From IMG/VR virus record IMGVR_UViG_3300042090_002370, positions 99,860-163,859 of that record: a stretch of DNA of 64,000 nucleotides; one strand, given 5' to 3'. Below are positions 54,093-64,000 of the stretch, piece after piece. Position 1 is the first letter of the stretch. Each line of letters begins with the position of its first letter. A program made the position numbers and the translations under genes. The DNA is from a virus. The notes under the pieces are model-generated. The model was not told the origin of the DNA, ran no database searches, and saw only the letters and a program-made list of their open reading frames with translations.

Positions 54093-54725
54093 GTGGACCT
54101 CAAACCAGTCACGCTTGCTGCGTTCGCTGATGAGCTCGGCAAGATAGCCGCGGCGCATGGCCTCAATGTCATCAGCAAGAGTCGTAAGGGCAGCCGGCCG
54201 ATTAGCGTCTCCAAGCTGCTTCAGAAGGATCGAGAGGGGACTCTACGGAAAAGGAAGCACGCCGATGCACAGGGCAACGCTCAGGACGTTCGCGGCGATG
54301 CGTGTGACGACCCGGGTGCTGCGCAGATCCCGCACCGCAAGGGCGAGGTTCCAACAAAGGGCTCGGACGACATTTCGGTAGGGCAGAAGACGGGGATGGT
54401 TCCAGGCGCTAATACGCAGACCTCTGCTGTCACTTCCGGTGAGGACACACGCATGACGCCGAGTGTGCGACCTTCTCCTGGTGATGTACCAACCCAGGCG
54501 AACATGGCCGTCGACCAGCCGAACAACCGTATAGGGCCTCCTACTCGTGGCATCACCTTCGATCAGGCGGCCAAGAAGGTTCGAAGTGGCGATGTTCCGA
54601 CGCGCACCGAGGACATGAACAAGGTGGACCGCGGGGATATGCGGGACAATACAACAACGGTGTCTGGCCTGGGACAGAGCTCAACTGGCATCGGCGCTTT
54701 TAACAGCCCGAGCGAACACACGTAA
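54093..54725 (+). CDS. FxDELxKIA-tagged protein with G[DE]VPT repeats
   Basis: LAAFADELGKIAA; GEVPT, GDVPT, GDVPT. Confidence 0.65.
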   Translation: MDLKPVTLAAFADELGKIAAAHGLNVISKSRKGSRPISVSKLLQKDREGTLRKRKHADAQGNAQDVRGDACDDPGAAQIPHRKGEVPTKGSDDISVGQKTGMVPGANTQTSAVTSGEDTRMTPSVRPSPGDVPTQANMAVDQPNNRIGPPTRGITFDQAAKKVRSGDVPTRTEDMNKVDRGDMRDNTTTVSGLGQSSTGIGAFNSPSEHT

Positions 54726-54750
54726 ATTACTGCGCGCCTCCGGGTATAAG
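54723..54750 (+). promoter_or_regulatory. Phage promoter TAAA-N16-GGTATAAG
   Basis: Motif variant before GGAGG and ATG 54767. Confidence 0.65.
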
Positions 54751-54766
54751 AACCTCGGAGGTTATC

Positions 54767-55174
54767 ATGTCTACAATTGATCTCAATTCATTGACGTTGG
54801 GGCAGCTGAAGGAAATCAAGGCACTGCTTGGCGTGCGGTCTTGTAAGGTCAAGGCTAAGCCAGCAAGCGGGTTCTGGACGGAGTCTTTCGAGGAGGAGGG
54901 CCCGGTCATCGTACGGAGTTACGGTGCCGGCGTTTTCTTCGGGTACCTATCCAAGAAGCGCGACAACGAAGTTCTACTTCTTCGGTGCAGGCGAATCTGG
55001 GTGTGGAAAGGCGCGAACACTTTGAGCGAGCTGGCGCGTCATGGCCTATTGCCGGAGGGGTCGAGAGTCTCAGAGCGCACTGCTAAGCATCGTGTGTTGG
55101 ACGTAATTGAGATTATCGACGTCACGCATGAAGCCATGAGGGTTTTGGAGTCCGCCGTGTGGAGCACAAAATGA
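54767..55174 (+). CDS. DUF6948-like small beta protein
   Basis: LTLGQLKEI; VIVRSYGAGVFFG..V.L..RRIW.W.GA.TLSELA..G. Confidence 0.7.
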   Translation: MSTIDLNSLTLGQLKEIKALLGVRSCKVKAKPASGFWTESFEEEGPVIVRSYGAGVFFGYLSKKRDNEVLLLRCRRIWVWKGANTLSELARHGLLPEGSRVSERTAKHRVLDVIEIIDVTHEAMRVLESAVWSTK

Positions 55175-55428
55175 AACGCGGTCGCCGTGTTTTCGGATAC
55201 GGATACGGATACGGAGACGGAGGCGGATACGGAAGCGGAGACGGAAGCGGATACGGATACGGAAGCGGAAGCGGAAGCGGATACGGAGACGGAGGCGGAA
55301 GCGGAGGCGGAAGCGGAGGCGGAGACGGAGGCGGAGACGGAGGCGGAGGCGGATACGGATACGGAAGCGGAAGCGGAAGCGGATACGGAGACGGAAGCGG
55401 AGGCGGAAGCGGAGGCGGAAGCGCGTAA
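55171..55428 (+). CDS. Gly-X dipeptide repeat protein (X = Y/D/S/G)
   Basis: ATGA overlap with the upstream stop; MKRGRRVF then (GX)38. Confidence 0.6.
   Translation: MKRGRRVFGYGYGYGDGGGYGSGDGSGYGYGSGSGSGYGDGGGSGGGSGGGDGGGDGGGGGYGYGSGSGSGYGDGSGGGSGGGSA
55195..55422 (+). repeat. 38 tandem GGANNC hexamers
   Basis: Only GGATAC, GGAGAC, GGAAGC, GGAGGC units. Confidence 0.95.
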
Positions 55429-55430
55429 CT

Positions 55431-55467
55431 AAAAAAGGAGGGCCGCGGCCCTCCTTTTTTTAGCCGC
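55431..55467. terminator. Bidirectional terminator plus TAGCCGC
   Basis: AAAAAAGGAGGGCC/GGCCCTCCTTTTTT. Confidence 0.85.
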
Positions 55468-60867: not shown

Positions 60868-62156
60868 GTAAACAACCCCGCCCTAAAGGGCGGAGCTTTG
60901 TGATTGAGCTTTTGAGACTCGAACCACTTTCCTGCTTCGACGAGGTGCCCTAAGGCGGCAAGAACTCTCCACAGGCTGAACCGATGGTTTCCAACGGCTT
61001 TTCAAAATCTTCGAGGCATTAATGTCGGCATGTTCCCGGTAACCGCAATGGACGCAGCAAAATACCTCTCCCTTGCGGGAAGCGGCGTCGATGCACCCAC
61101 AAGCCGAGCATGTTTGAGACGAGTAGGCGGGGTGGACTTCCGCCAACTGACCGCCCTCCCGCGTGAGCTTGTACTTGAGGAACTTGGCGAGCATTCCCCA
61201 ACCTTGGTCGAGGATACCTCGCGCAAGCCCCCGATTAGCCTTCACCATGTTGCCGATCTGGAGATTCTCGATCACGACGGTGCCGTGGCTCTTGGCGTAG
61301 TCGTGACTGAGCTGGTGACAGAAATGCTCCCGTTGCCTACGGACCTTCCGGTGAAGGTTGGCGCAGCGGAGCTTCGCTTTCTCTCGGTTTTGGGATCCTT
61401 TCTTCCTCCTAGAGACAGTACGTTGAGCACGCGCAAGCCTCTTGAGAGCCTTGCTGTAGAAGCGGGGGGATGGGACAAGCTTGCCGTCCGAGTCCGCGAT
61501 CACGTTCGTAACGCCTCGGTCGATAGCGACGATGGGCCCGACCTTTGGAGTCGGGTCGGCAACTTCAACCTCGCAGACAATCGAGGCGAACCACTGATCG
61601 CCGTCTCGCTTGAGGGTGCAAGTCTTGGGTCTGCCTTCGATGGGTCTGTGGATAACGGCTCTGAGGTTGCCGAGTTTGGGGAACCTCAAGAGGTTGCCGT
61701 CCAACCGCCAAGCTTTGGGATGTGGCTCGGTCAAGCCAAGGAAGTCTCGTCCTCGCTTCTTCCACCTAGGAGCCCGAGCCACCCGCTTGAAACAGCGTTG
61801 CCAAGCCTTGTCCAACTCGACGAGGAGCTGGGCACACACGTTTCGAGGAACATCGGCGAGCCAAGGAAGCTCTCTGCGAAGTTCGGTCAGTTCGTTGATC
61901 TGATCGAATGCGGACTGGAAGATTCTCTCGTCCCTAGGACGTGCAAGTCCCATCTGCCGCTGTTCAAGAGCAAGGTTCCAGAGGCACCGGAGAGCACTCT
62001 CCCACTGCCCGAACCGATCGACTTGAGCTTCGGTCGGGTAGACGCGATAGCGGAACGCCTTGCTCGTGACCACGGTACTACCATAGTACATCCCACAACC
62101 ATCTGGAGAGCGGTTCCTCCTCGGCCTGAAGGCCGAGGTTTCCCCGCTGAGATCCG
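60868..62156 (-). mobile_element. tnpB-only IS200/IS605-family element (IS1341-like)
   Basis: Subterminal hairpins CCTCGGCC-TTCA-GGCCGAGG (left) and CTCCGCCC-TTTA-GGGCGGGG..TTAC (right); no tnpA; exact ends inferred. Confidence 0.75.
60883..62091 (-). CDS. tnpB: RNA-guided endonuclease TnpB
   Basis: AFRYRVYPT HTH; RuvC AIDRGV, VIENL, HADINAS; CSACG..CVHCG Zn ribbon. Confidence 0.95.
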   Translation of the reverse strand: MYYGSTVVTSKAFRYRVYPTEAQVDRFGQWESALRCLWNLALEQRQMGLARPRDERIFQSAFDQINELTELRRELPWLADVPRNVCAQLLVELDKAWQRCFKRVARAPRWKKRGRDFLGLTEPHPKAWRLDGNLLRFPKLGNLRAVIHRPIEGRPKTCTLKRDGDQWFASIVCEVEVADPTPKVGPIVAIDRGVTNVIADSDGKLVPSPRFYSKALKRLARAQRTVSRRKKGSQNREKAKLRCANLHRKVRRQREHFCHQLSHDYAKSHGTVVIENLQIGNMVKANRGLARGILDQGWGMLAKFLKYKLTREGGQLAEVHPAYSSQTCSACGCIDAASRKGEVFCCVHCGYREHADINASKILKSRWKPSVQPVESSCRLRAPRRSRKVVRVSKAQSQSSAL

Positions 62157-63446
62157 ATGAACAAGGAATCCATCTTCCCGGAGCTGGCCCGACTAGGCTC
62201 GCATATCATGGGGCGTGCTCCTGAAGCCACTGCGGCCACAGAGGGGGCCGTGCGTGGTGCGATGGGGCAGCTACAGAACGGTGCGAAGAGGGTATTGAAC
62301 ACACCCATTCCGGGCACGCCTGAAGTCATACCTGCGGGCATCCGCTGGCACCTTCGCAAAGGGGTCGACAAGGTTATCGAGAACCCGGCGTTGGCGCTCG
62401 GTACAGTGACCCCTGTACCGTTTGGTGGGCCTCTTCTCATGGGGGCGCAGCGGGCTGTCGAGAGCGGTATCAACCGACTCGTACCGCCCAAGCTGGCCTT
62501 CGCCGTCTCGCAGTACTCGGGGGCGCTCAACCCCGTCATCGAGAGCGGCGCGAGCTATTTGCCGCAGCGAAAAGTTCCACGGCTTGATGTCGCGGTGGAC
62601 AAGGGCAATCTGCTCAAGGAGAAGGACAGCGACGCGCTCCCAGAAGGCATCGCGATGCAGCCTTGGGACAGTTTCAAGCGCTCGAAGTACGCCTTCATGG
62701 ATGAGTCGAATCCGTATCTGCGTAAGGCGGTGATAGGAGCTCTCGGTGGGGCGTTGGTCGGCGGTCTTGGTGGTGTTGGTCATGAGGCCATCTGGAAGAC
62801 GCCGATGAAGCCTATGTCGATTCACACGGAGGCGCAGGACAATGCCGGTGTTGATACAAGGTATGAGGGTGCTGACGTGGGCTCGTTGAAGCCTATACCT
62901 GAGGGCAGCTCGCCGATAGGCAGCAAACACTACACGTCACCGCGGGAGCTGGCGGTTGGTCGACTGGCCTCAACGCAAAACGCCGGTAAGAAAGTAAAGC
63001 CCCCGCCTGGTGTTAGGGAGATTGTCGAATCGGGTAGGCATCGGACAGTCACTGTAGACCGCCCAGAACTCGATGTCGCTGGGCGCATTTCGCCGCTCAG
63101 CTTCCACCATGACAGGCGCGCCATGTCGAGGGAACAAGCCATCGAATTCGCGCAGCGCGAAGCGCGCACACCAGGCAAGTACGCCATGCCGACGGAGAAG
63201 ATGGCCGAGTTCGTGGAGGGCCTGTTGAAGGAGGCCATCCCCGGCCTCACTCCTCAGAGCCGGTTGGAGCAGAGCGCAAGGATAGGGGCGCCCAAAGCTA
63301 CACCGCCACCAGGCCCATCGATTGCGGATATTGCGAAGCCCAAGGGAAGCGCGTTCGGTACGGCTATCGCCGGTGCGAACAAGGGTACGATTGGCGGTAC
63401 CAGTGTTGGTGGTATCGGCAATATGAAAAGCCTGCCGTCGTTGTAG
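62157..63446 (+). CDS. K-x-A multi-module protein with glycine zipper
   Basis: PKLAF, SKYAF, EKMAEFVEGLLKEA; GALGGALVGGLGG. Confidence 0.7.
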   Translation: MNKESIFPELARLGSHIMGRAPEATAATEGAVRGAMGQLQNGAKRVLNTPIPGTPEVIPAGIRWHLRKGVDKVIENPALALGTVTPVPFGGPLLMGAQRAVESGINRLVPPKLAFAVSQYSGALNPVIESGASYLPQRKVPRLDVAVDKGNLLKEKDSDALPEGIAMQPWDSFKRSKYAFMDESNPYLRKAVIGALGGALVGGLGGVGHEAIWKTPMKPMSIHTEAQDNAGVDTRYEGADVGSLKPIPEGSSPIGSKHYTSPRELAVGRLASTQNAGKKVKPPPGVREIVESGRHRTVTVDRPELDVAGRISPLSFHHDRRAMSREQAIEFAQREARTPGKYAMPTEKMAEFVEGLLKEAIPGLTPQSRLEQSARIGAPKATPPPGPSIADIAKPKGSAFGTAIAGANKGTIGGTSVGGIGNMKSLPSL

Positions 63447-63448
63447 TC

Positions 63449-63475
63449 ACAAGAACCTGTAAAAAGGGGGATAAG
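63449..63475 (+). promoter_or_regulatory. Phage promoter ACAA-N15-GGGATAAG
   Basis: Motif variant. Confidence 0.65.
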
Positions 63476-63515
63476 AACCTTGAGGAGTCACATCATCCTC
63501 AGAGGAGAATCGCCT

Positions 63516-63875
63516 ATGGAATTCAACATCGAAGACCTCACCATCAAGCAGATATGGGAGATCTCGCGCCTGGCCGGCTGCCGCGTGCGATCCAAGAAGA
63601 AGCCTCTCGTCGAGCTGCCCTTCAAGGCAGGCGACGCCATCATCGTCCGCACCGTGACGCTCATCGATCTCGGTAGGGTCGTGGCCATCGGCAGCGACTT
63701 CATCACCCTCACCGACGGGGGCTGGGTGGCCAGCACGGGGCGCTTTGGCGAAATGTTGAAGACGGGCAAGATCAACGAGTTCGAGAGGATCGATCTCCCT
63801 TGGTTCCTCGTTGGTCGCGGAGCGATCTGCGACCTGGCGCCGTGGCCTTTCGACATCCCCAAGGTCACGCTGTGA
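63516..63875 (+). CDS. Small beta protein related to 54767 (DUF6948-like)
   Basis: ATG after AGGAG; IEDLTIKQIWEI matches LNSLTLGQLKEI; IIVRTVT..GRV. Confidence 0.7.
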   Translation: MEFNIEDLTIKQIWEISRLAGCRVRSKKKPLVELPFKAGDAIIVRTVTLIDLGRVVAIGSDFITLTDGGWVASTGRFGEMLKTGKINEFERIDLPWFLVGRGAICDLAPWPFDIPKVTL

Positions 63876-64000
63876 ACGCCGCGATGTTGGGCGCGGCCGC
63901 ATGGGGCGGTGGGTCGTGGTCGGGGTCGTGGTCGCGGTCGGGGTCGCGGTCGTGGTCGCGGTCGGGGTCGCGGTCGTGGTCGCGGTCGGGGTCGCGGTCG
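63872..64000 (+). CDS. X-Ser dipeptide repeat protein (X = G/W/R), runs off the window
   Basis: GTGA overlap; MNAAMLGAAAWGGGSWSGSWSRSGSRSWSRS... Confidence 0.55.
   Translation, partial: MNAAMLGAAAWGGGSWSGSWSRSGSRSWSRSGSRSWSRSGSRS
63911..64000 (+). repeat. At least 15 tandem NGGTCG hexamers
   Basis: GGGTCG, TGGTCG, CGGTCG units to the window end. Confidence 0.95.

Follow-up and report, generated by a model that had tools for sequence, protein, structure and literature searches.

A truncated two-gene cassette at the end of a phage contig pairs a predicted Sm-like protein with an X-Ser repeat gene

Layout of the terminal cassette

We analyzed the last 64 kb of a 163,859-bp virus record of IMG/VR (IMGVR_UViG_3300042090_002370, positions 99,860 to 163,859); this stretch of 64,000 nucleotides is hereafter called the window. 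Its terminal segment (63449–64000) carries a two-gene cassette, cassette 2, in which a gene for a small protein (A2) is followed by a gene (B2) that consists of a short leader and an array of NGG-TCG hexamers. A second cassette of the same build, cassette 1 (genes A1 and B1), lies upstream in the window. Our results suggest that cassette 2 is probably the truncated 5' part of a widespread and unnamed two-gene phage module that combines an Sm-like protein (A) with a basic X-Ser repeat protein (B). Cassette 1, which combines a DUF6948 protein with a Gly-X repeat protein, is a distant paralogue of the same design. The features of cassette 2 are as follows.

63469–63480, + strand: upstream 12-mer GGATAAGAACCT, common to cassette 1; candidate promoter or operator element
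63501–63506, + strand: Shine-Dalgarno-like GAGGAG, 9 nucleotides 5' of the A2 start, read from the sequence
63516–63875, + strand: gene A2, 119 amino acids; helix with LTxKQxxEI motif at the N-terminus, then a linker and a predicted Sm/LSm-like beta-barrel; unnamed family
63872–63910, + strand: B2 start codon GTG and 13-codon leader, the GTG overlapping the A2 stop as GTGA
63911–64000, + strand: B2 body, 15 NGG-TCG hexamers encoding (Gly/Trp/Arg)-Ser, truncated at the contig end

The start of A2 was set at the ATG at 63516 by an alignment of homologues together with the GAGGAG at 63501–63506. The TTG at 63480, which the open reading frame (ORF) finder had listed as the start, was rejected on the same two grounds. 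The stop codon of A2 (TGA, 63873–63875) and the start codon of B2 (GTG, 63872–63874) share a 4-nucleotide overlap. Read from this GTG, the array presents the fixed TCG codon alternating with Gly, Trp or Arg codons that the original prediction had described: the Ser codon is always TCG and all 15 hexamers fit (Trp/Arg/Gly)-Ser with X = NGG. The units GGTCGC, GGTCGT and GGTCGG occur 6, 4 and 4 times, respectively. TRF detected the array at 63912–64000 with a period of 6 (14.8 copies, score 122) and with a period of 12 (score 150). Across the whole genome, the only period-6 arrays are those of the two cassettes, and the only A-like genes found by a profile search are A1 and A2. This profile included one DUF6948 row, and its matches on DUF6948 genes do not constitute independent evidence.

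The repeat had been predicted to be cut by the window edge, and this edge coincides with the contig end, base 64000 of the window being its final base, so that B2 is cut there. An extension of B2 past this point was not achieved, the contig of the source sample ending at 63952. Many unrelated short contigs pile on the array (63912–64000) at ≥90% likeness, namely 178 contigs of a wetland metagenome and 836 contigs of a lake metagenome. A loose end before such an array begins with ATGAAACGTGGACGCAGG, which encodes M-K-R-G-R-R and resembles the leader of the B gene of cassette 1; a leader of this type may sometimes head an NGGTCG array. The opposite end of the contig (L002:1-42, identical to G000:C1:1-42) starts inside about 3.5 copies of GAGAGTGCGGCG, unlike the terminal NGGTCG array, and one frame of the contig start presents a Cys-Gly-Gly-Glu repeat ORF ending at base 57. 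This repeat differs from the B2 array and so gave no continuation of B2.

The A proteins and their repeat partners

A total of 32 close homologues of A2 were found. A profile built from 30 of them matched 1,490 clusters (50% identity) at E ≤ 1e-3 among 1.84 billion representatives. A2 fits the family LIRTVT...W[VI]ADTGRF...GRGAI[VC]D. Searches with A2 against Pfam, PHROGs, NCBIfam and PADLOC returned no match, and a sequence search of the PDB was likewise negative. The Pfam model of DUF6948 matched neither A2 nor any of 64 sampled A2-family proteins.

The A2 family is tightly associated with X-Ser genes. We compiled 26 close loci (3 from IMG/VR and 23 from metagenomes), one GenBank record, a few assembly contigs and 80 of 409 more distant IMG/VR loci, these 409 being the matches to one 8-residue pattern. 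A downstream X-Ser gene was present in 91 of the 106 loci with an A2-family gene, and most of the others reach the contig end before the array. Contigs end within about 250 nucleotides of the A gene in 15 of the 26 close loci, as does the contig studied here. In the GenBank record (MW202573), both ORFs of the pair are annotated as hypothetical proteins.

The AlphaFold model of A2 (pLDDT 86.5) is composed of a helix (residues 10–19), a linker, three strands, a second helix (residues 77–83) and two strands; the linker comprises 20 residues of low confidence ahead of strand 1. When residues 29–113 were compared to known structures, nearly all of the top 50 rows of Foldseek and VIA were Sm, LSm or Hfq proteins. 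Lsm and SmF chains were matched by VIA with Z scores of 8.7 to 8.0 and root-mean-square deviations of 1.9–2.6 Å over 64–73 residues, the best match having a Z score of 8.7 and a deviation of 2.6 Å over 73 residues; by the tool's own note, Z scores near 8 are moderate only. Foldseek assigned a probability of 1.0 to the Sm/LSm matches but with an E value of about 1e-2. The best match of the model in BFVD is a DUF6948 protein (E 2e-3). Based on this model, A2 is predicted to be a helix followed by an Sm/LSm-like, strongly bent, five-stranded antiparallel barrel. None of the 30 close homologues departs from G59-x-D61 or G100-R101-G102; in the wider family, D61 and R101 do vary. As placed on the model without superposition, these residues would lie in the loops between strands 2 and 3 and between strands 4 and 5, where the Sm1 and Sm2 motifs sit. 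We also observed two A-type barrels within one polypeptide of 211–267 amino acids in four proteins (P0053, P0076, P0133 and P0134). Such proteins are suggestive of a normally oligomerizing, ring-forming protein.

The same architecture is found in cassette 1, whose features are the following.

54744–54755, + strand: cassette 1 copy of the upstream 12-mer, GTATAAGAACCT
54767–55174, + strand: gene A1, 135 amino acids, a DUF6948 protein (Pfam PF22253) and distant A2 homologue with the same predicted Sm-like architecture
55171–55428, + strand: gene B1, an 85-amino-acid (Gly-X)n protein with X = Tyr, Ser, Asp or Gly, built from GGA-NNC hexamers
55437–55462, + strand: GC-rich hairpin followed by a T run, terminator-like, closing cassette 1; read from the sequence

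As predicted, both cassettes are made of a small A gene, a 4-nucleotide overlap (GTGA in cassette 2; ATGA, 55171–55174, in cassette 1), a short leader and a hexamer array. The counterpart in cassette 2 of the terminator-like end falls beyond the contig. The two cassettes had also been proposed to carry the same type of promoter. This is borne out in part, by an exact 12-mer, G[GT]ATAAGAACCT, which is found upstream of both (54744 and 63469) and has no further copy on the + strand of the window; with up to one mismatch, it has 3 matches versus 0.12 expected by chance. It does not extend to a recognizable sigma-70 promoter, for which a consensus scan of 63300–64000 returned no match. On these sequence grounds, the shared 12-mer is a candidate promoter or operator element.

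A1 was assigned to DUF6948 by Pfam (E 1.9e-24, 86 bits). Its AlphaFold model (pLDDT 77.7) follows the A2 model in the succession of a helix, three strands, a helix and two strands and adds a helix at the C-terminus; Sm/LSm chains are its first matches, with VIA Z scores of up to 7.5. BLASTP aligned only the N-termini of A1 and A2 (E 0.008). The comparison of 65 A2-family sequences to 15 DUF6948 sequences with hhalign yielded a probability of 97.9% (E 4e-13) over 65 columns, which span the LTxGQxKEI helix and the first strands. The A proteins of the two cassettes are distant homologues with the same predicted fold, and the relatedness of the two small proteins, noticed in the original prediction from short shared motifs, is thereby confirmed.

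We then placed 114 A proteins on a maximum-likelihood tree. Those with a Gly-X partner, 16 in number, formed one branch (SH-aLRT 100), and the distribution of the X-Ser/Gly-X label requires a single change. As far as sequences tell, each A clade keeps its own repeat type. The original prediction had proposed a real system with partner-specific repeats, to be refuted if the upstream proteins were not homologous or if repeat type were unrelated to partner clade. Since the A proteins are homologous in sequence and share their modeled fold, and since repeat type follows the clade of the partner with only one change, both comparisons support this proposal.

A Gly-X gene follows the DUF6948 gene in Ralstonia phage NK-7 (where it is annotated as "fibroin heavy chain-like"), in Pectobacterium phage Ymer and in Iodobacter phage phiPLPE (where it is unannotated), as well as in the majority of the 14 loci examined from IMG/VR. 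For four of the latter (L127, L128, L129 and L138) no start codon was found, and the Tyr/Ala-Gly reading is by inspection only. Relatives encode the same residues by other codons, GGC-TCC/TAC/GAC (as in cultured phages) or GGC-TCT/TAT/GAT, whereas the window uses GGA-AGC/TAC/GAC. A phage usually carries only one of the X-Ser and Gly-X types: we found no DUF6948 gene in four records with the A2 type (three from IMG/VR and one from GenBank) and no A2-type gene in NK-7, Ymer or phiPLPE. A cultured phage with the X-Ser type was not found. Among the genomes seen, both types occur together only in the present one and in L037, an AT-rich phage contig from a crustacean metagenome. There (L037:1501-3360), the two cassette types flank RecT; one consists of an A2-like gene and an X-Ser gene with TCA as Ser codon, and the other of a DUF6948 gene and a Gly-X gene built from GGA-TAT/TCT/GAT.

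Reading frame, product and codon use of the B gene

Across the 91 loci, the leader of B has the consensus M-N-[AQ]-[AT]-[IV]-[LM]-R-x-G-[FYHLW]-[DE]-x-S and is followed by X-Ser dipeptides. The B2 leader in the window agrees with this consensus over its first six residues but reads G-A-A-A-W where the usual leader has R-x-G-[FY]-D, a variant that is also found in L010, among the nearest relatives. The start of B lies at −1 relative to the stop of A in most relatives, and offsets of +2 to +14 were also found. L025 and L028 have a spacer of 62 nucleotides between A and B with its own ribosome-binding site (GAGGAGG). In L004, L005 and L013, the stop of B overlaps the GTG of a P-loop kinase gene.

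The array is open in each of its three forward frames, which makes openness uninformative as to the frame that is translated. Other properties are informative. In 37 distinct gap-free leaders, the entropy by codon position was 0.78, 0.50 and 1.71 bits, and Gly9 of the leader is invariant with a saturated third base, which indicates a translated frame. The Ser codon of the array is TCG in 67 loci, AGC in 12, TCT in 9 and TCA in 3. These codons changed many times on the tree of A proteins (up to 21 times, on a poorly resolved tree), and the retention of Ser across swaps from TCN to AGC indicates selection at the level of the protein. Together with the placement of the starts, ribosome-binding sites and stops described above and with the failure of the Gly-Arg frame in relatives (see below), these patterns indicate that B2 is translated in the X-Ser frame, as had been predicted. 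An antisense Arg-Pro or Ala-Pro frame was also considered; it is ruled out by the arrays of the TCA type, which place TGA stops in it. Finally, the genes called as A in P0034 and P0036 extend upstream through a hexamer array in a Val-Ala/Val-Gly frame, showing that wrong-frame translations of these arrays are present in public protein sets.

Complete relatives of B2 are 22–135 amino acids long (median 71.5), with bodies reaching about 120 residues that are composed of Ser (45%), Arg (18%), Gly (14%) and Trp (13.5%). Their composition fits beta-sheet or phase-separating polymers, as the original prediction had suggested from the repeats themselves. In the X-Ser type, B has a median net charge of +10 (about +0.15 per residue) and A has a median charge of −3 (isoelectric point 5.3). 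In the Gly-X type, A has a median charge of +1; in the window, the charges are +5 for A1 and −2 for B1. The array of B changes fast, growing and shrinking by units of 6 nucleotides.

Duplications occur as well: the B gene or the whole cassette may be repeated in tandem, and some A proteins have two domains. In L025, L028, L073, L103 and L105, the first X-Ser gene is followed by another one with its own leader, which begins at or close to the stop codon of its predecessor; the second copy of L025 carries an in-frame stop. A second A gene follows the first cassette in L079 (2207-2539). In L067 (876-1103) and L070 (2212-2439), a Gly-Asp/Gly-Cys/Gly-Tyr repeat ORF without a DUF6948 gene of its own comes directly after the X-Ser gene; this arrangement may represent a mixed cassette.

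The codons of the array obey a further rule, since NGG represents 90.8% of the 1,987 X codons of 91 arrays. Gly is encoded by GGG in 515 of 527 cases and Arg by CGG or AGG in 723 of 739 cases (about 98% NGG), compared to 22.7% and 24.3%, respectively, for the same Gly and Arg codons in the adjacent A genes. This NGG rule is kept in phages of 34–42% G+C, with the Ser codon moved to TCT or TCA. Variants at the second codon position, which always change the residue, outnumber those at the third position, which are mostly silent (141 versus 33). It is possible that the arrays arise time and again from Trp units through changes of the first base, while selection maintains a mix of Trp, Arg and Gly. 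Alternatively, a second constraint could act on RNA, DNA or decoding, either through the GG found every six bases or through rare tRNAs with CCN anticodons. The genome encodes no tRNA and hence none for the codons of the array. We found no conserved RNA fold in the arrays, with median z values of +0.9, −1.5, −1.4 and +2.9 by codon class. At the variable base, T and G are accompanied in most arrays by either C or A, not by the two together; C and A both encode Arg, and this pattern fits the protein reading.

In a sample of scanned neighbors, no third gene was conserved beside the A-B pair. The downstream genes vary and include a P-loop nucleotide kinase, a Dam-type methylase, RecT, a GH108 lysozyme and a clamp-loader-like ATPase. 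In annotated phages, the neighbors are Erf, SSB, RecE/Bet, helicase and repressor genes. In the present genome, both cassettes sit among small genes. Upstream of cassette 2, a TnpB-like ORF of 402 amino acids (IS200/IS605 OrfB type by its motifs; 60883–62091, − strand) lies between a gene for an SNF2-type helicase and a gene encoding 429 amino acids. Several neighboring genes carry an F-x-D-E-L-x-K-I-like motif, N-terminal or internal (+ strand ORFs starting at 54093, 55965, 56657, 57328, 58113 and 62157). This motif is absent from A2 and B2.

Possible functions and relation to known systems

What the module does is a more tentative matter. Based on the predicted fold of A, the linkage and coupling of the two genes and the opposite charge of their products, we favor, with rather low confidence, a reading in which A and B would form a split version of an Sm core with a basic low-complexity tail that binds RNA. 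In such a system, A would form an Sm-like ring on which the leader of B would dock, and during infection the Arg/Trp-rich tail of B would bind RNA (or single-stranded DNA) or condense it, the targets possibly including transcripts of the phage itself. The products of A and B would be kept in step by the 4-nucleotide overlap that is usual between their genes. Several observations weigh against our interpretation of cassette 2 as an Sm-like module of this kind. A2 has no match to the Pfam LSM or Hfq models at E ≤ 1, and its second helix, placed between strands 3 and 4, is unlike canonical Sm proteins. The A2 of the window is near neutral (charge +1), and we infer the contact between A and B only from linkage, coupling and charge. 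The genomic context differs as well, with early, recombination or methylase regions in small phages versus a cluster of small genes here. No RNA run was found to contain the cassette 2 locus. Finally, the NGG bias and the excess of second-position over third-position variants point to an extra constraint on nucleic acid or decoding that a purely protein-based model does not explain.

This last point is the core of an alternative that we nevertheless consider unlikely, in which the array acts mainly as a nucleic acid: the GG present every six bases in the mRNA or DNA of B would be the ligand of the Sm-like A protein, in the manner of repeat binding by TRAP or CsrA, for autoregulation or for the nucleation of a ribonucleoprotein, and the peptide would be secondary. 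The near-exclusive use of GGG for Gly and of CGG or AGG for Arg, even in phages of low G+C content, and the scarcity of third-position relative to second-position variants are in line with this idea, as are the GG found every 6 nucleotides in the Gly-X arrays and the predicted RNA-binding fold of A. However, a constraint on GG alone does not demand that Ser be kept through swaps from TCN to AGC and leaves the clade-specific repeat type unexplained. Moreover, the leader shows the substitution pattern of a protein, the start and stop codons sit where translation would require them, and the arrays present no conserved RNA fold. It is also doubtful, and we regard it as quite unlikely, that B is a natural product or antimicrobial peptide made of a leader and a core, whose cationic Trp/Arg residues would act on membranes or cells, with A serving as chaperone, recognition element or immunity protein. 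The Arg/Trp-rich composition does resemble that of known antimicrobial peptides, a short conserved leader precedes a variable core, and B occurs in tandem copies in five loci. Yet no modifying enzyme, leader peptidase or exporter was conserved nearby in the sample of neighbors and the downstream genes vary, the leader has only 11–13 residues for bodies of up to about 120 residues, and the Gly-X partner of the paralogous cassette is acidic rather than cationic.

Two other explanations address the basic nature of the product. B might be a packaged polycation, that is, an internal head protein neutralizing DNA with A as its loading chaperone, as its charge per residue and the location of both cassettes inside a cluster of small genes would allow. 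We find this very unlikely because the module of smaller phages adjoins RecT, Erf, SSB, helicase, repressor or methylase genes rather than head genes, B2 lacks the N-terminal tag of the neighboring genes and the Gly-X paralogue is not basic. The tail of SmD1 is (GR)n, and the true product could likewise be (Gly-Arg)n, translated from a start of its own or, if ribosomes read through the A2 TGA, as the GR tail of an SmD1-like protein. Past this TGA, the GGT-CGN frame of the window continues the phase of A2, and the variable N would then be synonymous. But this phase is lost at A-B spacings of +4, +7 and +9 (L024, L018, L003 and L009), and other Ser codons turn the frame into Gly-Ala, Gly-Leu or Gly-His/Gln. 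The restriction of most arrays to only C or only A besides T and G is expected if both encode Arg, that is, in the X-Ser frame. In addition, no protein with A fused to such a tail was found among the top 8,000 candidates scored in a search of longer proteins, although this is weak evidence. With an unconserved phase and a frame that changes with the Ser codon, both the Gly-Arg frame and the read-through Sm-GR fusion were ruled out, and we give them hardly any credence.

Some of these ideas could be combined, in that the array might be read twice, as an X-Ser polymer and as a GG-periodic RNA bound by an Sm-like ring, such that A, B and the transcript of B form a self-nucleating ribonucleoprotein or condensate. 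We view this as a long shot. If true, this double constraint would have left the NGG rule as its footprint, and the cassette of DUF6948 and Gly-X would represent another form of the device with opposite charge.

Regardless of its function, the A-B pair is among the commoner unexplained gene pairs of environmental phages, as judged from about 1,500 clusters at 50% identity and from 409 IMG/VR loci on a single 8-residue pattern, and neither gene of the X-Ser pair has a family name. Full-text literature searches returned nothing relevant on DUF6948, on phage Sm-like proteins with dipeptide repeats or on the peptide words. The homology of the cassette types, the rule linking clade to repeat alphabet, the codon-position test of the leader and the NGG rule are new here. 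These results are also of practical use: the array breaks metagenome assemblies and leads gene callers to pick wrong frames, and knowing the true frame and the pairing of the genes aids both annotation and assembly. More generally, the module would join an RNA-binding fold to an extreme dipeptide-repeat polymer of sticker-and-spacer composition (Arg/Trp with Ser/Gly) and constitutes a compact bacterial-virus case for what such polymers do. Two paralogous cassettes in one genome, along with clade-specific alphabets, provide a natural setting for the question of specificity, and the NGG rule offers a way to separate functions at the protein level from those at the RNA level.

Among the closest parallels are eukaryotic proteins: in SmD1, SmD3, SmB and LSm4, too, an Sm-like barrel is joined to a basic low-complexity polymer that contains Gly and Arg. 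In these proteins, however, barrel and tail are not two genes, as they are in the phage module, and the repeat is Arg-Gly rather than X-Ser with Trp. A2 further departs from Sm/LSm proteins by lacking a Pfam Sm match at the sequence level and by its extra predicted helix between strands 3 and 4. Unlike in the SmD1 type, B is a separate ORF, and neither the GR frame nor the read-through phase is conserved. The LSm domains of Edc3 and LSm14, which are among the structural matches of A2, dock short helical motifs of disordered partners, and the leader of B could be a docking motif of this kind.

Within phages, A2 and the DUF6948 (PF22253) systems have in common an N-terminal LTxGQxKEI helix, a predicted Sm-like barrel and a coupled downstream gene for a dipeptide repeat built from hexamers. 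They differ in that A2 falls below the Pfam model and in that its partner is a basic X-Ser rather than an acidic Gly-Tyr/Ser/Asp protein. Relative to other copies of the X-Ser module, the copy in the window is truncated, is located in a phage of roughly 164 kb beside a Gly-X paralogue and has a leader without R-x-G-[FY]-D. Although they have no sequence or evolutionary link to these proteins and use other sets of residues, the arrays finally resemble silk fibroin-type Gly-X repeats and eukaryotic Ser/Arg dipeptide-repeat domains in having a two-residue period with one fixed and one variable residue, a very low complexity and a length that varies by slippage of units.

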